A stretch of DNA of 64,000 nucleotides from a virus (taxonomy: Duplodnaviria; Heunggongvirae; Uroviricota; Caudoviricetes). How positions within the stretch are numbered: the first letter of the stretch is position 1; the number at the start of each line of letters is the position of its first letter. The DNA lies in the IMG/VR virus record IMGVR_UViG_3300032167_005013. One strand, given 5' to 3'. The position numbers and the translations under genes were made by a program. The notes under the pieces were generated by a model. It was not told where the DNA came from and made no database searches. It was given only the letters and a program-made list of their open reading frames with translations. Positions 31,118-63,789 of the stretch are shown piece after piece.

Positions 31118-31513
31118 ATGAGGAACGTAGATATTTCAACACTTAAAGATAAAGTTATTAAAGAAATCAGAGGTCTTGAACCCGGTAGTGAAGAAATCAC
31201 ATTCATCACTACAGATGGATACAAATATATAATGTTTCATAGCCAAGACTGCTGTGAATCGGTTTCAGTTGACGACGTTGTTGGTGATGTTGAATGCCTA
31301 CTGAATACACCTATTCAAATTGCAGAGGAAAGAGTATCTTCAGATGAGCCACCTTCGGTATCTAAATGGGTAGATTTTTCATATACTTGGACTTTCTATA
31401 CACTTGCTACAGTGAAAGGATATGTGGATATCAAATGGTTTGGCACATCCAATGGATACTATAGTGAAAGTGTAGATTTCCTTGAATTGGAACCTCAATG
31501 CTTTTATAATTAA
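31118..31513 (+). CDS. conserved phage protein (HxQDCCE..WTFY..SNGYYSE)
   Basis: Recognisable phage motif set. Confidence 0.75.
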   Translation: MRNVDISTLKDKVIKEIRGLEPGSEEITFITTDGYKYIMFHSQDCCESVSVDDVVGDVECLLNTPIQIAEERVSSDEPPSVSKWVDFSYTWTFYTLATVKGYVDIKWFGTSNGYYSESVDFLELEPQCFYN

Positions 31514-31567
31514 TTTTTGGTTATATAATATATTTTCATTATATTTGCAATGACATAAAACGGTTTA

Positions 31568-31650
31568 ACCTTGGTAACGCTCAGGGACATTATATTAGAG
31601 CTATAAGCTTTCTAAACTTATGGACAGTGGTTGAAATCCACTCTGAGGTC
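31568..31650 (+). tRNA. degenerate tRNA, probably Arg(TCT)
   Basis: accttgg/ctgaggt, enlarged D loop, taagc-ttTCTaa-actta, agtgg-TTGAAAT-ccact. Confidence 0.45.
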
Positions 31651-31673
31651 AATGACCGTAAAAAATACTGCTG

Positions 31674-31731
31674 AGAAAACGTACAGCAAATTATTAGCAA
31701 TGGACTTTTAATCTATCAGGCTTGTTTTCTG
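31674..31731 (+). ncRNA. stem-YACAGCAA RNA, copy A (contains a Lys-like anticodon hairpin)
   Basis: agaaaacg-TACAGCAA...atgga-cttttaa-tctat...tgttttct-g. Confidence 0.55.
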
Positions 31732-31772
31732 ACACAAAGCAGTTAAAATATGACTCAACCTGGCAAGGTTTA

Positions 31773-31829
31773 AGGAAACACACAGCAAAATTATGTTTAT
31801 TAATTATGATGCAATTAAACTGTTTCCTG
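31773..31829 (+). ncRNA. stem-YACAGCAA RNA, copy B
   Basis: aggaaaca-CACAGCAA...tgtttcct-g. Confidence 0.55.
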
Positions 31830-31862
31830 TTAATATAAGTACTCTTTTGAGTACACTATTAC

Positions 31863-31937
31863 GGGCCTGTAATTCAAAGGTTAGAATGCACGACTCATAA
31901 TCCTGTCATCCTTGTTCGAGTCAAGGCGGGCCCACCA
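31863..31937 (+). tRNA. tRNA(CAT), Ile2 or Met
   Basis: gggcctg/cgggccc, ctCATaa loop, TTCGAGT, CCA. Confidence 0.85.
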
Positions 31938-32150
31938 ATAGAAGTGTTCTTTTTCATATTTGTCTTATATTCGTGCTCCCTTGAGGCACCATCTATAATG
32001 AGGAGAATGGTTGGGGTGATGGTATTCCCGCGAACCATAGGTGAGGAGACTAACGTATTTCCCTGCGGATAACAGATGCTGCAGGTCCTCATGAGACCTA
32101 CCTTAACAATTGTGATGGAACCCCCATCCTACTGAAATGGTCTCACTAAT

Positions 32151-32225
32151 GCGAGTGTAGCTCAGTTGGCAGAGCGTCAGTTTCCCAAACTGAAGGTTTC
32201 GCGGGTTCGAGTCCCGTCTCTCGCT
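32151..32225 (+). tRNA. tRNA-Gly(CCC)
   Basis: tcagt-ttCCCaa-actga; U discriminator. Confidence 0.9.
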
Positions 32226-32233
32226 CAAATAAC

Positions 32234-32318
32234 GGCGACATGGTGTAATGGTAGCCACGCAGGATTTAAGTCCCTGTGGCCCGAAGGGGCCGTGTCGGTT
32301 CGAGTCCGACTGTCGCTA
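32234..32318 (+). tRNA. tRNA-Leu(TAA)
   Basis: ttTAAgt loop, long variable arm. Confidence 0.85.
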
Positions 32319-32424
32319 CAAAAAATTACTTAATATAGGTACTCTTTTGAGTACATTATTATAACTTTTTATTTTAACGTACTATTTATTATTACAAATA
32401 AATTAAACTACATTAATAAAAAAT

Positions 32425-32514
32425 ATGAGAAATCTCCAACATACAAATTATTCGTATCCCAAATCTCTCAATTTTGGGCTCGATTATCGTATAGTGGAGG
32501 ATTTAGACGAATAG
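32425..32514 (+). CDS. putative leader peptide (29 aa)
   Basis: MRNLQHTNYSYPKSLNFGLDYRIVEDLDE followed by a terminator with competing pairing. Confidence 0.4.
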   Translation: MRNLQHTNYSYPKSLNFGLDYRIVEDLDE

Positions 32515-32549
32515 TAAATTTTTAGATTTATACTCATATTCATGATGCT

Positions 32550-32586
32550 ATCCTCCGGTTTAATAAAAAACTTGGAGGATTTTTTA
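32550..32586 (+). terminator. intrinsic terminator / attenuator
   Basis: atcctcc...ggaggat followed by a T run. Confidence 0.65.
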
Positions 32587-32628
32587 TTTTGGCACGGTAT
32601 TTGTATATATGTATTTTGAAAATATATA

Positions 32629-32701
32629 GAGGATGTAGTTCAGTTGGTAGAATATCACATTGTGGCTGTGAGGGCCATGGGTTCAAATCCCATCATTCTC
32701 C
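32629..32701 (+). tRNA. tRNA-His(GTG)
   Basis: tcaca-ttGTGgc-tgtga; preceded by a sigma54-like box at 32588. Confidence 0.9.
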
Positions 32702-32716
32702 CAAATTAAAATAAAT

Positions 32717-32811
32717 GGAGGCGTACCCAAGTGCTTGAAGGGGACGGACTTGAAATCCGTTAGGACGGTAACCACTCCGTCGCGTGGGTTGGAATCCCAC
32801 CGCCTCCTCCA
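32717..32811 (+). tRNA. tRNA-Ser(TGA)
   Basis: acgga-ctTGAaa-tccgt, long variable arm, CCA. Confidence 0.9.
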
Positions 32812-32846
32812 ATACAGTTGTAAGTAATCTGCGAAACTTTCAAAAA

Positions 32847-32928
32847 CGGAATGTGATGGAACTGGTAGACATGCGACACTTAGGATGTCGTGCCTCCGTG
32901 CGTAAGGGTTCGAGTCCCTTCATTCCGA
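32847..32928 (+). tRNA. tRNA-Leu(TAG)
   Basis: cgaca-ctTAGga-tgtcg. Confidence 0.9.
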
Positions 32929-32934
32929 CAATAT

Positions 32935-33010
32935 ATGGTAATAGCTCAGTTGACAGAGCGCTTGGTTTGGGACCAAGAGGCCGCAGGTTTGAGCCCTGCT
33001 TACCATACCA
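32935..33010 (+). tRNA. tRNA-Pro(TGG)
   Basis: cttgg-ttTGGga-ccaag, CCA. Confidence 0.9.
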
Positions 33011-33014
33011 AAAT

Positions 33015-33090
33015 GAGGTTGTAGCTCAGGTGGTAGAGCGGGAGCCTGAAGAGCTCCGCGTCGGTGGTTCAACTCCATCCAACCTCACCA
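33015..33090 (+). tRNA. tRNA-Phe(GAA)
   Basis: ggagc-ctGAAga-gctcc, CCA. Confidence 0.92.
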
Positions 33091-33165
33091 AAATAAAAAT
33101 ATTTTTGGTATTGTTAAAAACAATCACTATATTTGCAAATGAAAAGAAAACGGTAAACAAAATAT

Positions 33166-33241
33166 TCCCAAGTAGCTCAGTAGGTTTTAGAGCAACGGTC
33201 TGTTAAACCGTGGGTCGGTGGTTCGAATCCACCCTTGGGAG
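33166..33241 (+). tRNA. tRNA-Asn(GTT)
   Basis: acggt-ctGTTaa-accgt; G discriminator. Confidence 0.92.
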
Positions 33242-33310
33242 CGAGAAGAGGTTTTTCTTATTTTAGACTTCTGGTACAAAAAGAAAATAAGATGGTGCTC
33301 CAAGCAATAT

Positions 33311-33393
33311 GCCGAAATGGGACAGTGGTTGACTCCACCTGATTTGTAATCAGGCTCCGCAAGGACTCGTCAGTTCGAATCTGACTTTCGGCT
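33311..33393 (+). tRNA. tRNA-Thr(TGT) with a long variable arm
   Basis: cctga-ttTGTaa-tcagg; G1-C72/C2-G71; variable hairpin tcc-gcaa-gga. Confidence 0.8.
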
Positions 33394-33565
33394 CAAAAAC
33401 AAAACCTCAAGTTGGGGTGCCTCATAACATAGTCGTTCAAAATGGAGAACGGCCAAAGGGCAAGAATATAGATAGAGAGGCCTCACGTTCAAGCGGATAA
33501 GGCGTTTAACTTATCAACCTCTCACAAACGTGACTACGGAAATCGTTTGGGTTTTGTTTTATATT

Positions 33566-33727
33566 GGGTCAGCGCCGCAGTTGGAGAGGCGGGACAGACT
33601 GTAATAACAGAGTAAACTGTCACAAATCGCTGGTTGGAAATTGGTAGGAAGTATCGAGGTATCGTACACCTCTCCAATCACAATCTGTTGTCGTAAGGCT
33701 GAGTAGGTTCGATTCCTACCTGACCCA
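33566..33727 (+). tRNA. tRNA-Tyr(GTA) with a 78-nt anticodon-loop intron (~33605-33682)
   Basis: Removing the insert gives acaga-ctGTAaa-tctgt; acceptor gggtcag/ctgaccc; T arm intact. Confidence 0.85.
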
Positions 33728-33801
33728 CTATAAAATTAATAATGTAAAATATAGTATTTTTTAGTTCGATATACTATTTATATATAGAAAAACTAAAAAA
33801 T

Positions 33802-34587
33802 ATGATTACAAATGAAAGAAAAATATTTTACATAAATTTAATTAAAGATTCTTTTTCTTTACGAGAAGTTTGTTTAAAAGCGGGAATAGTTGTTACTACA
33901 GGCAATTATGATACTTTAAAAAGACTAATTAAAGAGGAGAATATTGATATAAGTCATTTTAAAAGACAAAATGTAAATAATCAAACTCATCATGAAATTG
34001 ATTATTTTTTACAAAAAGGAAGTAACATTGGGTCGTTTAGATTAAAAAATAAACTTTTTGATAATGGTTTAAAAGAACGTAAATGCGAATGTTGTGGAGG
34101 AACGGAATGGATGGGTAAACCTATTAATCTTCAACTACACCATATTAATGGAGATAATAAAGATAATAGATTGGAGAATCTTCAAATACTTTGCCCAAAT
34201 TGCCATTCTTATACAGAGAATTACTGCGGGAAAAACCAAAAAATCAATATAAAAGAAAAAGAAAGAATAATAAAAAAACGGACATATATAGATGTAAAAC
34301 TTTTACAAGAATGTTTAAATGAAACAAATGATTTAAATATTATTGGTGAAAAACTTAATAGAACACCAAAAACAATTAAAAAATATATAAAACAATATAA
34401 TTTAAAAATAGAAACAAAAGAAAAAAAACCAAAATATGATGTTAATTTAATGTTTCAATTAATGAAAAAATATAAAAATTATACCAAGGTTGGTGAAAAA
34501 ATGGGGATTAGTGATAATGCTGTGAAAAAACGTTTTATCAAACTTGGTTATCCATCTAATATTAAAGATTTATTAAATTCAATATAA
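33802..34587 (+). CDS. HNH endonuclease with C-terminal HTH-like repeats
   Basis: CECCG..LQLHHINGDNKDNRLENLQILCPNCH. Confidence 0.85.
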   Translation: MITNERKIFYINLIKDSFSLREVCLKAGIVVTTGNYDTLKRLIKEENIDISHFKRQNVNNQTHHEIDYFLQKGSNIGSFRLKNKLFDNGLKERKCECCGGTEWMGKPINLQLHHINGDNKDNRLENLQILCPNCHSYTENYCGKNQKINIKEKERIIKKRTYIDVKLLQECLNETNDLNIIGEKLNRTPKTIKKYIKQYNLKIETKEKKPKYDVNLMFQLMKKYKNYTKVGEKMGISDNAVKKRFIKLGYPSNIKDLLNSI

Positions 34588-34598
34588 TATATGGATTC

Positions 34599-34672
34599 GC
34601 TCTCAAAGCATTAAAGTGATGCACGAAACTTTTAATTTCGGGAAGAAGGGGCGGTACCTTCTGGGAGCACCA
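34599..34672 (+). tRNA. tRNA-Lys(TTT)
   Basis: cgaaa-ctTTTaa-tttcg, CCA; atypical T loop GGCGGTA. Confidence 0.85.
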
Positions 34673-34824
34673 AATTTTTAACATAAAAAGCATATCTAAT
34701 AGGAAAAATTGCCTCCTTAAGATATGAAACCATATACGGAAGTTGCGTTTGGCAGACAATAGGACCAACAACCTATCCAAAGTACACGGATACGGAAAGA
34801 CATTATGGAATGTTAAATAAATAT

Positions 34825-34907
34825 AGGAATGTAACTCAGTTGATAGAGGCTTCGCTGAGATAATATCAAAGGCCAAGAGGACGGTGGTTTGAGCCCATCC
34901 ATTCCTA
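34825..34907 (+). ncRNA. tRNA-like RNA with an expanded (18-nt) anticodon loop
   Basis: aggaatg/cattcct acceptor; D and T arms present. Confidence 0.55.
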
Positions 34908-34915
34908 CAAATTAT

Positions 34916-35047
34916 GTTAGTTTATTGCAGTATATTGGAGACTGCAGCGAATGTTATTTCGTCTTCGTTTGAGCAACAGACCGTTAGGGTGCACACAATG
35001 ACAACGGTGTTGCGAGAAGTATGGAGGTTCAATTCCTTCAACTATCA
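34916..35047 (+). ncRNA. tRNA-like RNA with a ~70-nt central expansion
   Basis: gttagtt/aactatc, tgcagt..actgca D-like arm, ggagg-TTCAATT-ccttc T arm. Confidence 0.45.
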
Positions 35048-35056
35048 CTAAGGTAT

Positions 35057-35203
35057 TGTGGCGTGGTGTAACGGTAGCACTAAGGATTTTTTAAGGCGTG
35101 GTTTCCGTAATAAACTATTGGTACGGGTCTTATGAAGTTAAGTAGAGCAAAACTACCCTGTATCGCGGTTCCTTCAGTCAGAGTTCGAATCTCTGCGCCA
35201 CAA
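35057..35203 (+). tRNA. tRNA-Gln(TTG) with a 76-nt insertion inside the anticodon (35091-35166)
   Basis: Removing the insert gives aagga-ttTTGgt-tcctt; tgtggcg/cgccaca acceptor and Gln-type D arm. Confidence 0.8.
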
Positions 35204-35338
35204 CTAAAATGAAATAAATTTGATAATATCAATATTTATATACTATATTTGCAACATAAAGGGATGGCTATATATGATGAATGATAGGAATAGCCTACAA
35301 CATATATGACACCTCCCTATTTTTAAAAAGAAAAATTA

Positions 35339-35421
35339 AGGAAACATACAGCAAAGTTTTTGGATAATAAAATTAATTAGACTTTAGTTTTTAGATAGTT
35401 CAATTCTGTCACTGTTTTCTG
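35339..35421 (+). ncRNA. stem-YACAGCAA RNA, copy C (contains a T-arm-like hairpin)
   Basis: aggaaaca-TACAGCAA...gatag-TTCAATT-ctgtc..tgttttct-g. Confidence 0.55.
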
Positions 35422-35477
35422 TCTTAATATAACCGTGGTTGCAGTCAAATCGGGATATAAATAGCGACTGCATATAT

Positions 35478-35550
35478 TGCGGCGTGTAGCAGTGGTAGCT
35501 AAGCGGTCTCATAAGCCGACGGTCGGTGGTTCGAATCCTCCCGCTCGCAA
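35478..35550 (+). tRNA. tRNA-Met(CAT), initiator-like but irregular
   Basis: ctCATaa loop, TTCGAAT T loop, bulged acceptor stem. Confidence 0.75.
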
Positions 35551-35820
35551 CGAGTCTACTCACAGAGATGTACTCTTGGTTGGTCGCACTACCGTAAATG
35601 CGATACAATTGATGTTGAACAATGGTCTTGGAATAACCTGCAGCAAGTACAAGGCAACAACACTGGTAGTTAACGTGACATTAGCCGGTGAAGAGTATAT
35701 TTCAACATTTGTTGAATATTTTAATTTTTATTTATATTAACATTCAGTATCAGGACGGGTGTGAACCTCTCCTGATATTTTTTTCTATACACTATGGCAC
35801 GATTTTTGCTATCTCTATTA

Positions 35821-35864
35821 TTCGAAAATACTTTTCTCATTATTCGAAAATACTTTTCTCATTA
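35821..35864. repeat. 22-bp tandem duplication (ttcgaaaatacttttctcatta x2)
   Basis: Seen directly. Confidence 0.85.
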
Positions 35865-36242
35865 TGATTGTTTAACCTTCATATATTATAGTGGCAGTAA
35901 GCAGAAAAACGGTTTCTTAATACTGAAGTATAGTCTCCATTGTACCTATTTATCACCATTTAGAATTATTCTAATTAACAATCTATAAGCAAAAACATAT
36001 AAATAAATTATAATTTAGCACAACATTACATGGAGAAAAAATAAAAATTGTAAGCAAAATACTCGATAATGCTTACAATTTATTAAAAATGCGTATGTAA
36101 TATAGTGTATATTTCTATATGTGTGGAAAAATTAAAAAAATTTTGAAAAAATCCGGGGAAAATTATTACAAAGAACAGTTTCTTTTGTTATTTTCAATCA
36201 ACTTCCACAAACGGATAATTCGTTAAAATCTTAGTAAGATAA

Positions 36243-37280
36243 TTAATATGTTATAAGTTTCTCTACTTGTTCTATTGTAAGGTTTATCAAAATATTATAA
36301 ACATGTTCTTCCATTTTTCCACGATATTCTTCAGTTCTTTTAACGATTTGTTTTCTTTTACAATCAAGGTAAACTTTATAAGCTTCTTCTTCAGTATCAA
36401 ATTCATTTTTTTTACCTTCTAAAAAAGAGTCAATAAAATTTCTTTCCACATTCAACTTCCATTTACCTGTTTCTGAGTTATAAGTTGTTCCTGTATAGTA
36501 CCCGTTTTTAAGTTGTTGTTTTGGCCTTCTTGCAAAGATAATTCCAATCCTATTAGGAATAAACACAATATTATCAACAGTATAATTATTAATATTGTCA
36601 TCAAGATTTAAGATTAAATCATTAACAACCAAGATTTCATTGTAGGTATCTTGTGCTTTTTGATATTTTTCACAAAAGTCTTCTTGTTTTATATCAAATG
36701 TTTTATTTTTCAAATAGGCATAATTATTAAGGTTAGATTTAGCCCTGCTCATATATGATTTATAAGCGTTTTTTGCTGCTTTGTTATATTTGCCATTGAT
36801 TTTTGTTGTTTTTATTGGGGTCATTGTATTATACCCTTCTTGTAATGTTTTAAACACATCACAATAAAATGCTTCTCGTTCATCAAGAAGTTCTATAGGA
36901 CATATCTCCATTATATTATAATTCCATTTCCATGGGTCAACGTCCTTTCTTGCTTTTTCAATTTTACTTCCCGCATATGGATTATTTCCGAGAAATTGTT
37001 TGTATCTATTTCTCAAATTCTCGGTTTTTCCTATATATTTTTTATAATCATCTTCGGGGTTCACAAGCATGTATATTCCTGATGTCTCAGGTATTGTATT
37101 AATGATAGATTCTTTATAAGACTTGATACTACTTTCATTTATGATGTTTTTCTTTTTCTTCAACTCATTTTTCAATACTTTATTTTCTTCAGCATAAATC
37201 AAATTTTCATGTATTAATGCATTTTCTTTATCAGAAAATTCAGTACCATCTATAGTTTTATATTTTAAAATTATTTCCAT
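36243..37280 (-). CDS. GIY-YIG homing endonuclease
   Basis: SGIYMLVN..KYIGKTENLRNRYKQF..E..GYN; start reassigned to MEIILKYK. Confidence 0.8.
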   Translation of the reverse strand: MEIILKYKTIDGTEFSDKENALIHENLIYAEENKVLKNELKKKKNIINESSIKSYKESIINTIPETSGIYMLVNPEDDYKKYIGKTENLRNRYKQFLGNNPYAGSKIEKARKDVDPWKWNYNIMEICPIELLDEREAFYCDVFKTLQEGYNTMTPIKTTKINGKYNKAAKNAYKSYMSRAKSNLNNYAYLKNKTFDIKQEDFCEKYQKAQDTYNEILVVNDLILNLDDNINNYTVDNIVFIPNRIGIIFARRPKQQLKNGYYTGTTYNSETGKWKLNVERNFIDSFLEGKKNEFDTEEEAYKVYLDCKRKQIVKRTEEYRGKMEEHVYNILINLTIEQVEKLITY

Positions 37281-44482: not shown

Positions 44483-46033
44483 TTATTCCTCATCATCAGC
44501 ATACCCCTCAAGCATGTCCCCCGTGATGACACCCTTATCCATATCCTTCTTTTCCTGTTCAAAATAGAGGTCACTCTTAATCTTGAACGCCTCCTGAATA
44601 GGGTCATTTTCAATTCTGATGACAAGTCCTTCTCTCCAAACCTTATTCTTGCAAAGAGGCTCCTTAAGGTCCATACCGAACTTCTCCGAGTCAGTCTTCA
44701 TCCTGCGAACAAAGTTCTCATGCCAATGTTCCTCAGTTGAAAGGTCGGGGTAGATATCCTTTGCAGGGCCATGATACATCAGCTGCAGAGGGAAAATCTT
44801 ATCTTCAAGGTCAGGGTAAGTCTCAATCAGCCACTTGGTATATCCAATTACATCTGTGATTTCAAAATCCTCATACTTACCGGTTGCGGAGTTGAACTCA
44901 GTCACACGATAAATCATGAGCTTGTTCTCGCCCTTCTTACAACCATAGTCATATACCTTACCACCACGGGTAATGATGCCTGTTTCTGAATTAGGTACAT
45001 ATCCAAGAATTTCTCCGTAGATAATCATTCCATGGTCAACCTTACCCTTAAGAATCTCATACCACTGTGGGTAAACTGCATCAAGGCCTGTCGGATAATT
45101 GTCACCGGTCTTACCAACCTTTGAAGTACTGCTCTTAGGAGCCTCGACATAAGCATTTCCTGAACGAATGACATTTCGTGAACTGCAGACATCCTCCCAA
45201 TCAATATCCCATGTTCTCCACTTATCAGGCATCAACATGAATGCCTTAAGTATTAACTTATTAAGGAAATTGAAACGAGTCTTTGGGAGACGTGGGGTTC
45301 TCGTCTGAATATTACCGAAGATTATTGATGTTCCGTCCAACTTAAGAGAGATATCAACGACATCCTCAGGCTTGATTTTCCAAGCATTCCTCTCAAGGCT
45401 CTGTGTGTCGTAGTGAAACTGCCACTGTCCCTCGACAATCCTGTCAATCTTGGCAATGGTCTTCTTATGTCTCTTATAATGCTTTCCCTTTCCTGCTGAG
45501 TGCTTTCTCTCCTTGATTCGAGGAACATATGGCTTTGAGAAGAGGACACCATCAACGGTATCAAATTCAGTCCCAATATAATCCTCAAGATTCAACTTCT
45601 CAACACCCGGAAATGCGAGTGCCATTGCTCTCTGAGAGAAGAGGAAACCAAATGAAGGCACTCCGCCAAGACGAATCATCTTCACACGCCCATACTTATT
45701 GAAGAATCCTACCTTCCTCTTGGCTTCGTCCTTCTTATCCTCGCTCATCAGTTTTTCAACCTCCTCGTAGTTGACATTAAGTTGTCTTTCCCCAATTTCA
45801 AAAAGGTTGTTCTTTGAAAGGAAATCTGTGTTAAGTTCTGATTCGTTTGCTGCATAGAAAAGGATATCACCCTCGTGGCATTCGTCCTTTCTGACAACCA
45901 TTGTAAAGTTCTCAACAACAGTTACTCCGATTGAATCATATCCCGGAATATCCTTAACCTCTCCAATCTTCACGATTGTGGTACAATATTCCTGCTTAAA
46001 CTTTTCTGATTTTGTAAAAATGTTCTTTGCCAT
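44483..46033 (-). CDS. ATP-dependent RNA ligase (DRB0094/Rnl2-like) with an N-terminal OB-like domain
   Basis: KLDGTS (motif I), SSRN, YGEILG (III), EGLVIR (IV), FKIKS (V). Confidence 0.85.
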   Translation of the reverse strand: MAKNIFTKSEKFKQEYCTTIVKIGEVKDIPGYDSIGVTVVENFTMVVRKDECHEGDILFYAANESELNTDFLSKNNLFEIGERQLNVNYEEVEKLMSEDKKDEAKRKVGFFNKYGRVKMIRLGGVPSFGFLFSQRAMALAFPGVEKLNLEDYIGTEFDTVDGVLFSKPYVPRIKERKHSAGKGKHYKRHKKTIAKIDRIVEGQWQFHYDTQSLERNAWKIKPEDVVDISLKLDGTSIIFGNIQTRTPRLPKTRFNFLNKLILKAFMLMPDKWRTWDIDWEDVCSSRNVIRSGNAYVEAPKSSTSKVGKTGDNYPTGLDAVYPQWYEILKGKVDHGMIIYGEILGYVPNSETGIITRGGKVYDYGCKKGENKLMIYRVTEFNSATGKYEDFEITDVIGYTKWLIETYPDLEDKIFPLQLMYHGPAKDIYPDLSTEEHWHENFVRRMKTDSEKFGMDLKEPLCKNKVWREGLVIRIENDPIQEAFKIKSDLYFEQEKKDMDKGVITGDMLEGYADDEE

Positions 46034-48588: not shown

Positions 48589-49773
48589 TTATTCCAAATC
48601 AACAAATTTTTGTTTTATTTTGATAGAATAAAACAACCCTATTGAGTAAAAAACAAATAATATCACAAAAAGAGCGTTATAGGATAGTCCCATTATATTG
48701 ATAATGAAATTGGATAATTGATTACCCGACAATCCAGCAAAAGCCCATGCTGATAATGTAAGCCCATGCAAGGTACTAATATTGCTCATCCCAAAATGAC
48801 TTTGAATGAGTGTTGGTAGTGTACTGAACCCACCTCCATATCCTGCATTGACAACACATAACATCATAGGAATTACAAGAGGTAAAAATGTTCCAAATAC
48901 CAATGTTAATGAAGAAGATAAAAATATTACAACATAAACCCATGCTTTATTTTTCATGAAATCAGATGCTGTTGAATAACCAAATCTTCCTACCGTATTG
49001 AAAAATGCTGTTAATGTGGCAAGTATTCCAATATTTGTGAGACCTGAGTATAAACCAATGTTTTTTTCAAATGAAATCAATGCTAAACCACATGTAATAT
49101 TAAGGTAAAAAACAAACCATATTTGACGATATGTTTTATTTTTAAAAATTTTTAGTGTCTCCCTAAAATGTGTTTTCACAACCGGTTCCACCCACCCATC
49201 AGGCTTTTTTATACAATACGTTGCCAAACCCATAAGAATTATACTAACGCCTGATATTATACCTAATGTCCATTCAACTCCCATATTGAAATTACACCAT
49301 TCAATGAACGGGGAAAATATGACTTTAGATAGGCCAAACCCCGATATTGCAATTCCTGTTGCAAGTCCTTTATGTTCTGAAAACCAAAGCATTAATGTTT
49401 TTACCGGGCTCAGATAACCAATACCCAAGCCAATGCCCATAAGACAACCGTATGATAATATAAGACCTATTCTACTTTTCAAATATATTGCTATAATTGA
49501 CAATACAAGACCTGATACAAAACATATAGTTGATAATAGTGAAGATTTTTTGACATTTTTTTCAACAAAACTCCCACCAAAAGCCGCTGACATACCTAAA
49601 AAGAAAATTGCCAACGAAAAACAAATCTCAATTGAAGCAACGCTACAGCCTATTGATGTTGCAATCTCATCTTTCAATAATGACCAACAATATACACTCC
49701 CAATACAAGAGTGTATTAATAAAGCAGGTATAGCACCTCTAAACCATTTATTATTTAATATTTCTTTCCCCAT
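48589..49773 (-). CDS. MFS transporter, oxalate/formate antiporter-like
   Basis: ~12 TM; IGSVYCWS, GIGLGIGYLSPVKTLMLWF, GYGGGF. Confidence 0.85.
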   Translation of the reverse strand: MGKEILNNKWFRGAIPALLIHSCIGSVYCWSLLKDEIATSIGCSVASIEICFSLAIFFLGMSAAFGGSFVEKNVKKSSLLSTICFVSGLVLSIIAIYLKSRIGLILSYGCLMGIGLGIGYLSPVKTLMLWFSEHKGLATGIAISGFGLSKVIFSPFIEWCNFNMGVEWTLGIISGVSIILMGLATYCIKKPDGWVEPVVKTHFRETLKIFKNKTYRQIWFVFYLNITCGLALISFEKNIGLYSGLTNIGILATLTAFFNTVGRFGYSTASDFMKNKAWVYVVIFLSSSLTLVFGTFLPLVIPMMLCVVNAGYGGGFSTLPTLIQSHFGMSNISTLHGLTLSAWAFAGLSGNQLSNFIINIMGLSYNALFVILFVFYSIGLFYSIKIKQKFVDLE

Positions 49774-50606: not shown

Positions 50607-51692
50607 CTATTCATCGTTAAATTTTTTAATAAATTTCTCTGCTTTGTTTCGTTTTTCCATGTATTTTTTACGTCGGAATTCATTGGTTTTTTCAATGTTT
50701 TCCCTTATCTTGTCATTATGCTTCCTGCATTTCTCATAGGTATTTAATTCTCTTGCCCAATCTTCAATCGAAGCCGCAGAAATATCTTTCTTTATTGCCT
50801 TGTACCCATCATAAGGTGAAAGAATGTCGACAGTATCATCAATGATATATTCCCAATCCCATCCGTTATTGTTTGAAAATTTTATATTGAACCAATTATC
50901 TGTTTCGGATTCAACATTACCGTTCGCACGTGGATTTACAGCAAGTTCCTCAAGTGTATTTCCTATCCAACCCTGACCATTCCTATGATAACCGTTCATT
51001 GTAAGGAAATCAATAGACGATTTATCATTGAATTTATAACCTGTTTTCAATGTCAAGGCCTGTGAACTATTAAAACCGAAATCTCTAAAACCCGCTGTCT
51101 GCTGATGTCCTGCCCTTACATGTAATCCCCATCCATTCTGAGGAAGCATATTATATACTGCAGTTGCCTTAAATGAATTAAAACTACCGCCACCAAAATA
51201 AACATATGAGTCCTGTGGTTTATGAATATTGACCGATTCCAAAAGGATTCCTCCGGCCACACCCGCAATTCCATTATATGATGAAGCAGTACCCTTTTCT
51301 ACCCTAACTGTCTGCATCGAAGACAAAAGGTCAGGACTGTTAGCAAAATAAGCACCATAGTCCTCAGCCTCATTCCATGGGCAACCATCAAGAGATACAT
51401 TTATACGGGTTTGGTCAAGTCCTCTGATTCTAAAGTAACCGTAACCAAATTCTGTACCATTGTCATTCAATGAAATAATTGATGGCATCTTACTAAAAAC
51501 ATTTGATGGTTCCTGTCCGTAATTGGTTTCAGTAAGCGTTTTAATATCAACTACCGAACTTACTGTTGTTGAACTACTATAAAATGAAGATACGACAATT
51601 TCGTCAAGCGCCACAACCGTAGTATCTGATTCCTGTGCAAACGTAATAATCGCAATAAATGCAGAAATAAATGCCAAAATAAATTTTCTCAT
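50607..51692 (-). pseudogene. TonB-dependent receptor N-terminal part fused to an unrelated phage ORF
   Basis: Signal peptide, LDEIVVS box, plug motif FRIRGLDQTRINVSLDG. The barrel stops at ~50890 and the tail resembles 47198-47611. Confidence 0.75.
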
Positions 51693-62589: not shown

Positions 62590-63789
62590 TTAGAAGGCAT
62601 TGCCTCGGTCATCCACAGTTAGGTTCTCCATAAGCGTATATTCGGTGCTACGGACACCTATTATTCTTTCTCCCTCTAATAAGATATTCATCGCTGCATT
62701 TATATCCCTGTCATGATGTTCGCCACATTGTGGACATGTCCATTCCCTGTCACTTAACTTCAAATCATGTTTCTTATATCCACAAACTGAACATGTTTTA
62801 CTGCTTGGATAGAATCTATCAACAAATATTACTTGTTTTCCGTTATTGAATGCTTTATCAACAAGTATTGATTTAAATCTATAAAATCCTACTTCTTGTA
62901 TCGCTTTCGCTAACTTATGATTCTTTAACATTCCACTAACATTTAAGTCTTCCATGAAGATTACATCATAATATATAAGCAATTCATTTACTACACTATG
63001 AATATAATTCTCTTTCTGATTGTTTAACTTCTCAAATGCCTTTGCAAGTTTGATTCTTGCTTTATTTCTGTTATTAGAACCTTTTTGTTTCTTTGATAAT
63101 TGATGTTGGAGTTTTGCTATCTTCTGTTCTTGTAATTTATAGAAATGTTTATTTTCAAACACTTCACCATCACTTGTAATTACAAAATCTTTAACTCCTA
63201 AGTCAATACCAACATGTTCATCAGTTAATTTGAATTTAACAACTTCTTCATTTGGTAACTCAATTAAGATAGATAAGAAGAAATTACCACTCTTGGTTTT
63301 CGATAAGGTAGCACTTCTTATTCCATCACGATATTGTCTGAGTCTGTTGTGATTCAAATCAGAACATCTGAAACGAATATCTTTTAAAGGTTGTGTCAAC
63401 GTTATTTTTCTTGTTTCAAATGTATTCTTCTTTGAAATCGCTTCAAGTGGGAATAACGCTGACTGTTTATCTTTTTTACTTTTGAATTTTGGGAAACCAT
63501 TATGTTGTTTAAAGAACTTCTCATAAGCAGATAGCATCTGCCTTATTGACTGTTTCATTATCTTTGTGTTTTCTTCTTTCAACCATGAGTATTGTTCATC
63601 CTTCAATAGTTCATTATGAAAATACTTTGATAAATCAGTTAAACCTAATGATTTCTTATTTTCAGTATATTCTTGTTGTTTACGAGCAAGTGTTTGATTA
63701 TAAACAAAACGGTAACACCCCAATACTTTATTCAGTTTCAGTTCTTGCTCCTTATTTGGATATAATCTTATTTTAATTGCTCTTAACAT
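62590..63789 (-). mobile_element. tnpB: Solo TnpB (IS200/IS605/IS607 family RNA-guided nuclease)
   Basis: KIRLYPNKEQ HTH, GIDLGVKD (RuvC-I), MEDLNV (II), PSSKTCSVCG..CPQCG..DRDINAA (Zn/III); no tnpA immediately adjacent. Confidence 0.9.

Follow-up and report, generated by a model that had tools for sequence, protein, structure and literature searches.

A short Lak-type intron in a phage tRNA-Tyr gene and a candidate protein-dependent route for its removal

The question raised by this locus is how a virus of bacteria could make use of a tRNA gene whose anticodon loop is interrupted by 78 nt. To our knowledge, bacteria have no splicing system for tRNA introns this short, and the textbook view is that bacteria and their viruses have self-splicing introns only. 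We analysed a stretch of 64,000 nt (the window) from a giant phage. The IMG/VR virus record to which it belongs measures 80.7 kb and has inverted terminal repeats, and CheckV puts its completeness at 23%. Our reading, held with only slightly more confidence than doubt, is that the tRNA-Tyr gene is a working gene and that its insert would be a non-self-splicing intron of the type found in Lak megaphages, removed by protein enzymes that act on signals inside the intron.

When introns were allowed, ARAGORN called a tRNA-Tyr(gta) at 33566-33728 with an intron of 78 nt, while default ARAGORN and Rfam scans at the gathering threshold gave no tRNA-Tyr at 33566-33727. With positions 33604-33681 removed, ARAGORN calls a canonical class II tRNA-Tyr of 85 nt with a long variable arm and the 7-nt loop CUGUAAA. 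The intron call and the canonical spliced form bear out an earlier note on this DNA, which had described a tRNA-Tyr(GTA) split by 78 nt. The gene is built as follows:

33566..33603, plus strand: exon 1 of tRNA-Tyr(GTA) (ARAGORN intron mode), with the acceptor 5' strand, D arm, anticodon stem 5' strand and loop bases 32-36 (CTGTA)
33604..33630, plus strand: 5' module of the intron, 27 nt, made of A, TA, the hairpin ACAG-AGTAAA-CTGT (33607-33620) and the spacer CACAAATCGC
33631..33681, plus strand: 3' module of the intron, a tRNA-like domain in which the parser finds 8+5 = 13 bp and the minimum-energy fold agrees
33682..33727, plus strand: exon 2 of tRNA-Tyr (ARAGORN), with loop bases 37-38 (AA), anticodon stem 3' strand, long variable arm, T arm and acceptor 3' strand

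Both hairpins of the earlier note were found again, ACAG/CTGT at 33607-33620 and, inside TGGTTGGA/TCCAATCA at 33631-33680, GAGGT/ACCTC at 33656-33672. Positions 33605-33620 form a 16-mer, TAACAGAGTAAACTGT, which recurs elsewhere. In the 3' module, 33631-33638 pairs with 33673-33680 as an acceptor-like stem of 8 bp, a small hairpin lies at 33643-33655, the hairpin at 33656-33672 is T-arm-like (5 bp, 7-nt loop), and the unpaired C at 33681 is terminal. The insert as such folds weakly compared to shuffled sequences (z = -1.0 for the entire insert, z = -2.0 for the 3' domain alone). Of 3000 shuffles of the insert, 0 gave a 13-bp stack whose end lies 1 nt from the insert's 3' end, and the geometry is thus not explained by chance. 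Exon 2 has the discriminator A and no encoded CCA; CCA is not encoded in 9 of the 14 tRNA genes of the window, which makes endonucleolytic 3' processing plausible in the system of this phage.

The same plan was found in a second gene nearby:

35057..35203, plus strand: split tRNA-Gln(UUG), with exon 1 at 35057-35090, an intron of 76 nt at 35091-35166 and exon 2 from 35167

In intron mode ARAGORN places this gene at 35057-35204, gives it an intron of 76 nt and labels it Arg; under a relaxed threshold, the Rfam tRNA model scores it at 47.5 bits. In the body, U1 pairs with A72 and the D arm resembles that of Lak tRNA-Gln. Applying the junction rule of the family (see below) gives the loop UUUU|GGU and a spliced form that ARAGORN calls tRNA-Gln. 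The Gln intron consists of a 28-nt 5' module, a tRNA-like stack of 9+4 = 13 bp and a terminal C; its 5' module has diverged, with AAUAAA kept and a clear stem or hairpin missing. Throughout the 80.7-kb record, tRNA-Tyr and tRNA-Gln are each represented solely by the split gene.

The tRNAs of Lak megaphages carry introns that have been called "enigmatic" and are listed in Table S6 of Devoto et al. (2019, PMC6784885; Fig. 4), and such introns occur in 77% of the recoded jumbo phages surveyed in a 2026 study (PMC13037316). The kind of insert was therefore known from these two papers, and the gene studied here is a further member. Neither paper gives an architecture or a mechanism, so that the short tRNA introns of huge gut phages have been on record without a mechanism since 2019 (PMC6784885), and our literature search found no mechanism for them in any paper. 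What is added here is the exact modular geometry, the occurrence of the 16-mer across phages and contexts, the junction rule derived against intron-less alleles, and a correction of the Lak "Tyr" genes.

The link to the Lak phages came from the 16-mer, as the tRNA-Phe intron of Lak-A1 opens with TAACAGAGTAAACTGT, identical to 33605-33620. A metagenome scan with the 16-mer gave 120 matches, mostly by chance within genes, with the extended motif in 24 of 117 distinct contexts. Among the matches were a class II tRNA-Tyr(GTA) that has an intron of 86 nt and occurs in four variants (L076, L140, L164, L176), and two tRNA-Lys(UUU) genes with introns of 72 and 142 nt (L085, L093), and all six introns open with the same 5' module. 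Searches were also made by other routes: an IMG/VR search for the same Tyr exons with an insert had as its sole match an ordinary tRNA-Tyr with a chance downstream match, the relatives of the upstream DUF7448 gene had no tRNA arrays, and BLAST of the Tyr and Gln split genes against GenBank phages returned exon fragments only.

We parsed 14 inserts (Tyr and Gln of this phage, two versions each of Lak Phe and Lak "Tyr", Lak Thr, Lak Gly and the six metagenome genes), nine of which are independent. All 14 open with one variable base followed by UA, the U being invariant at +2. Then comes a hairpin of 4-5 bp, whose 6-nt loop is rich in A and reads ARUAAA in nearly all inserts and AAACAA in those of Lak Asn, and after it an A-rich spacer that usually holds AAAUC or AAAUU; the 5' module measures 27-31 nt, and exactly 27 nt in 9 of the 14. 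In all 14, the acceptor-like and T-arm-like stems stack to 13 bp (8+5 or 9+4) and are followed by one unpaired C, and for each of the nine independent inserts a 13-bp stack 1 nt from the 3' end was reached by 0 to 6 of 3000 shuffles. The 3' domains range from 44 to 113 nt and have no common sequence, only the helix geometry being kept; at one extreme, in Lak Thr and L093, they are almost whole tRNAs, and at the other, in the studied phage, bare minihelices. This range fits selection for recognition by RNase P, RNase Z and the CCA-adding enzyme. The T-like loop reads TTCGAWT in most relatives, as against ATCGTAC (Tyr) and AGCAAAA (Gln) in the studied phage. Compared to the criteria for a minihelix substrate of RNase P and RNase Z (12-bp stack, 7-nt T loop, unpaired discriminator), the stack here has 13 bp, and the T loop is canonical in the relatives but not here. 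The outer pair of the stack is pyrimidine-purine in every insert, which would also allow a 12-bp register having Y(-1), R73 and C74. Every insert has the orientation of its host tRNA, seven tRNA types are interrupted (Tyr, Phe, Lys, Gly, Thr, Asn and Gln), and among the occurrences of the 16-mer the strict minihelix geometry is confined to tRNA introns. In terms of its predicted fold, the insert is bipartite, with a hairpin 5' module and a tRNA-like minihelix that ends in a terminal C. Two further pairings were tried and rejected. A pseudoknot in the 5' module finds no complementary partner for the loop in the Tyr insert, and pairing of the anticodon-loop CUGU with the intron ACAG works only for G34 anticodons and fails for both Lys introns that have the same module, so that the module does not generally pair with the anticodon loop.

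The junctions could be placed with the help of the relatives. In the Tyr gene itself the junction is ambiguous by one A, and the earlier note had put it at 37/38; the relatives move it to 36|37 (loop CUGUA|AA). In this phage and in every relative examined, a 7-nt anticodon loop that matches the tRNA body results if the insert is taken out from the variable base up to and including the terminal C. Two syntenic pairs of intron-less and split genes are available, namely tRNA-Asn(GTT) of Lak-A1 (L055:8757-8831) versus the split gene of Lak-B1 (L058:10825-11040), and tRNA-Asn of Lak-B1 (L058:5439-5510) versus the split gene of Lak-A1 (L055:2344-2508). The intron-less Lak loop CTGTTAA is recovered only by excising A-TACAGG...GTAG-C, which confirms the junction rule (N|...C|). 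The bodies of the Lak "tRNA-Tyr(GTA)" genes are Asn-like class I tRNAs, and Lak also has an ordinary class II tRNA-Tyr. Going by these bodies and alleles, the introns that Table S6 of Devoto 2019 lists under Lak "tRNA-Tyr(GTA)" split tRNA-Asn(GUU) at 35|36. The junction thus lies at 35|36 in Gln and Asn and at 36|37 in Tyr: the 5' junction moves with the intron and not with the tRNA, and both cut signals would accordingly lie inside the intron.

Changes in the exons bear on whether the split genes work. Between L076 and its three relatives, U-A gives way to G-C in the exon T stem and A-U to G-C in an intron hairpin, and another pair appears as A-U, G-U and G-C. Between the Phe genes of Lak-A1 and Lak-B1, compensatory changes turn C-G into U-A in the T stem of the exons and TGG/CCA into TAG/CTA in the T arm of the intron, and the split Lak-B1 Asn gene shows compensatory changes in the acceptor and T stems compared to its intron-less orthologue. 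The compensatory exon changes are indirect signs that the split genes may work. The earlier note had named covariation of the insert as a check. In the Tyr set all 180 cells are paired, but the set consists of 4 close sequences and 22-28 of 500 shuffles do as well.

By its architecture, the insert is a Lak-type "enigmatic" phage tRNA intron, and neither a ribozyme nor an intron of archaeal type. It shares with the Lak introns a short, non-group-I insertion in the anticodon loop, a tRNA-like 3' part, the 27-nt module, the 13-bp stack and the terminal C, and the phages also share a homologous RNA ligase and a homologous HNH neighbour. Unlike in Lak, the host gene here is a true class II tRNA-Tyr in a different phage (GC 35% vs 26% in Lak, with no sign of TAG recoding in the studied phage), and the 3' domain is unrelated in sequence and cut down to a minihelix with an off-consensus T-like loop. 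Group I introns occupy anticodon loops as well, such as those of cyanobacterial tRNA-Leu UAA and Azoarcus tRNA-Ile, and have a minimum of about 200 nt. They are like the insert in their place in the anticodon loop, in being found in bacteria and phages and in their association with homing endonuclease genes, but the insert has only 78 nt, no conserved catalytic core (P3-P8) and no Rfam match. A permissive Rfam scan of 31500-36300 (E <= 10) returned tRNAs and noise only; introns of group I or II were not among the hits, nor were ribozymes of the hatchet, HDV-like, twister, pistol or hammerhead families. This agrees with the earlier note that the insert is too short for a group I/II intron. Archaeal and eukaryal tRNA introns (EndA/Sen with RtcB or Trl1) also lie beside the anticodon and depend on a cut-and-ligate logic of proteins like that proposed here, and the yeast and plant Trl1 route ends in an ATP-dependent ligase step as proposed for the insert. 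In contrast to these introns, a bulge-helix-bulge cannot be drawn here, as the sequence offers no complementary central helix of 4 bp and intron bases 2-5 (UAAC) face AAUC, which is already in the acceptor-like stem, and the insert instead of the tRNA body would set the cut sites. Searches of the 80.7-kb record and of the complete Lak-A1 genome (541 kb) for the archaeal splicing endonuclease (PF01974) and for RtcB found neither, with controls positive, in accordance with the earlier claim that bacteria lack a splicing endonuclease of the archaeal/eukaryal kind. In MALAT1/mascRNA and in mitochondrial tRNA punctuation an embedded tRNA-like fold likewise directs cuts by RNase P and RNase Z; there, however, RNA ends are made without ligation, whereas the flanks of the insert need rejoining.

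Since bacteria lack a known splicing system for such an insert, RNA-cutting enzymes and a phage RNA ligase are probably needed. A candidate for the ligase is present in the window:

44483..46033, minus strand: candidate ATP-dependent RNA ligase of 516 aa (phrog_968 'RNA ligase', E 4e-31, full length)

The candidate has weak matches to the OB domain of PHA02142 and to the DRB0094-type N-terminus of TIGR02306, and a homologue in Lak-A1 (34% identity, E 1e-37); its tie to the introns is co-occurrence in two genomes only. For RNase P, RNase Z and the CCA-adding enzyme, an acceptor/T minihelix is sufficient as a substrate. It is possible that an RNase Z-type 3' processing activity recognises the minihelix and cuts after the unpaired C, which would leave a 5'-phosphate on exon 2; the 3' junction, one unpaired base past the stack, is an RNase Z cut site if the helix end is the reference. 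A cut by RNase P at the 5' edge of the minihelix would possibly free a mini-tRNA, but this edge is 27 nt short of the 5' junction and a further cut is thus required, as RNase P and RNase Z alone would leave the 27-nt module on exon 1. A second endonuclease could recognise the hairpin module and cut 3 nt upstream (N|N-U-A), producing a 3'-OH on exon 1. Our first guess for this enzyme would be a host enzyme similar to RNase E/G and our second a phage enzyme. RNase E has a reported preference for U at +2, which the U at +2 of the insert resembles, and a cut of the RNase E/G type would leave the downstream piece with a hairpin-protected 5' end. The folded tRNA body may keep both halves together until the phage ATP-dependent RNA ligase seals the anticodon loop. 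ATP-dependent ligases join a 3'-OH to a 5'-phosphate, so the predicted ends would need no repair before sealing. Several points speak against this route: in the canonical 12-bp register the terminal C becomes position 74, one past the usual RNase Z site, the T-like loops of the studied phage are off consensus, and the folding z-scores are weak. The earlier note had suggested either a phage nuclease with a ligase or a small catalytic RNA for the removal; the former survives as the best reading, while the latter is unlikely considering the size range and unrelated sequences of the 3' domains.

The 5' module has a life outside tRNA genes. In IMG/VR the exact 16-mer occurs at 44 loci, and AAA[AT]C or AAATT follows 2-5 nt downstream in 32 of 40 distinct contexts, compared to a background of 3%. 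The stand-alone copies are found in phages of about 30% GC, with 1-2 copies per complete genome of 87-245 kb and up to three in one fetched locus, and a terminator-like hairpin often precedes them. The genes downstream are diverse small orphans, for which no known function was found. An element of about 27 nt, C-TAACAGAGTAAACTGT-WWAAATCA, recurs in L009-L052 and others (e.g. L033, L034, L042). Judged by this distribution, the 5' module is portable and appears to work on its own, and the stand-alone element of about 27 nt could be a promoter, a processing site or an antitermination-type site. In the cultured phages L053 and L054 (Escherichia Phapecoctavirus), early-gene sigma-70 promoters contain AGAGTAAACTGTAT, with TAAACT as the -10 box. 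The likeness of the 16-mer to these promoters is probably a coincidence, yet the motif can act as a -10 region. The matches in E. coli phages, being ordinary sigma-70 -10 regions, were rejected, and in the Crassvirales promoter literature no sequence was found for comparison with the 16-mer.

The best surviving alternative, which we nevertheless regard as unlikely, builds on these copies: the 5' module would be a promoter or leader and the insert a mobile cassette with the tRNA-like RNA as its product, the host tRNA being dead or only incidentally restored. The stand-alone 16-mer with AAATC is intergenic and always on the strand of the next gene, 24-55 nt before most start codons, a few copies (L161, L106, L016) precede a short structured RNA and then a terminator, and TAAACT, which serves as a -10 box in the Phapecoctavirus promoters, resembles one here as well. 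However, the stems of the Lak introns covary (ACAAG/CTTGT, CAATC/GATTG, CAGG/CCTG) around a similar A-rich loop, which points to a folded strand rather than a promoter read as sequence. Both the window and Lak-A1 hold a single copy of the 16-mer, and neither phage therefore uses it as a general promoter. In addition, the intron module always abuts the exon boundary, the exons of split genes show compensatory evolution, and a -35 box and the Bacteroidota -7/-33 motif are absent. Because of the covarying Lak stems, the position against the exon and the lack of use as a general promoter, a role of the module at the RNA level is favoured over a hairpin-type promoter.

That the gene is a recent pseudogene in which neither part functions, the alternative that the earlier note itself had offered, seems improbable. 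The degenerate T-like loops of the studied phage, the Gln 5' module without a clear hairpin and the adjoining mobile HNH gene could be taken as decay. On the other hand, two independent inserts in the genome obey the exact family geometry, the exons form perfect cloverleaves, and related split genes have been kept in diverged lineages, with compensatory changes in their exons, which weakens this alternative. Slightly less probable still is that the unspliced precursor soaks up or evades host anticodon nucleases, or that the excised mini-tRNA is a decoy. Phage tRNAs counter tRNA-cleaving defences, and the genome has an RNA ligase gene, but the spliced tRNA is as exposed as any other and the seven interrupted tRNA types have no common anticodon feature. 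The suggestion of the earlier note that the insert shields the anticodon has no supporting evidence, and the mature tRNA cannot be protected in this way. The least credible alternative is that the insert, or its 5' module with the anticodon loop, self-cleaves or self-splices: hatchet and HDV-like ribozymes cleave at their own 5' end and 78 nt is within their size range, but no ribozyme family of Rfam matches even at E <= 10, the 3' domain lacks a conserved core and can take up insertions of tens of bases, conservation is limited to a 4-bp hairpin with an A-rich tail, and the module lies beside the unrelated anticodon loops of all seven tRNA types, so that pairing with the exon is not general.

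Returning to removal by protein enzymes, a wider proposal is that these inserts may form a distinct class of introns in bacterial viruses, in which both cuts are set entirely by two portable RNA modules of the intron, one a hairpin signal for cleavage that also acts alone in mRNA leaders of other phages, the other a tRNA minihelix that tRNA-processing enzymes recognise, and a phage ligase rejoins the exons. We put this forward tentatively and with rather more doubt than the reading of the tRNA-Tyr gene itself. If true, it would be a third way of splicing tRNA, protein-dependent and bacterial, assembled from housekeeping RNases that trim tRNAs, and the insert would be a portable and excisable RNA cassette. 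The anatomy is testable, with a 5' boundary of N-UA-hairpin, a 3' boundary of the 13-bp minihelix plus C, the 16-mer common to unrelated phages and the conserved candidate ligase. For annotation, standard bacterial tRNA finders miss the split genes, and finders in eukaryote mode can misname them, as with the Lak "Tyr" genes that are Asn.

The surroundings of the tRNA-Tyr gene include these features:

31863-33394: run of tRNA genes (default ARAGORN)
33802..34587, plus strand: free-standing HNH endonuclease gene (Pfam HNH, weak; phrog_10822, E 4e-42)

The HNH gene starts 75 nt past tRNA-Tyr, and its homologues (27% identity) lie directly 3' of tRNA-Asn, both the intron-less gene in Lak-A1 (L055:8835-9485) and the split one in Lak-B1 (L058:11045-11701). 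As the HNH genes adjoin split and unsplit tRNA alleles alike, this suggests that they are free-standing homing endonucleases targeting tRNA clusters.

Some minor observations were made in the same region. The 170-nt spacer between tRNA-Thr and tRNA-Tyr (33392-33566) folds into a multi-hairpin RNA with an 11-bp closing stem of AAAACAAAACC with GGGTTTTGTTTT (z = -2.9, equalled by 0 of 200 shuffles), for which an Rfam match was not found. Rfam also gave two more tRNA matches, a weak one of 34 bits at 34825-34907 and, at 35479-35549, a tRNA-Met-like gene missed by default ARAGORN. Positions 34908-35047 resemble a tRNA shell with an expansion of about 70 nt that contains AACAG. A third interrupted tRNA was called by ARAGORN in intron mode, a Ser(gct) whose insert of 48 nt is oddly placed, on the minus strand at record positions 78086-78204 in window orientation, about 9.2-9.3 kb past the window end. 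The record, which is classed as viral, also holds ORFs with MFS transporter (48589-49773), TonB-dependent receptor plug (50607-51692) and TnpB/OrfB_IS605 (62590-63789) domains.
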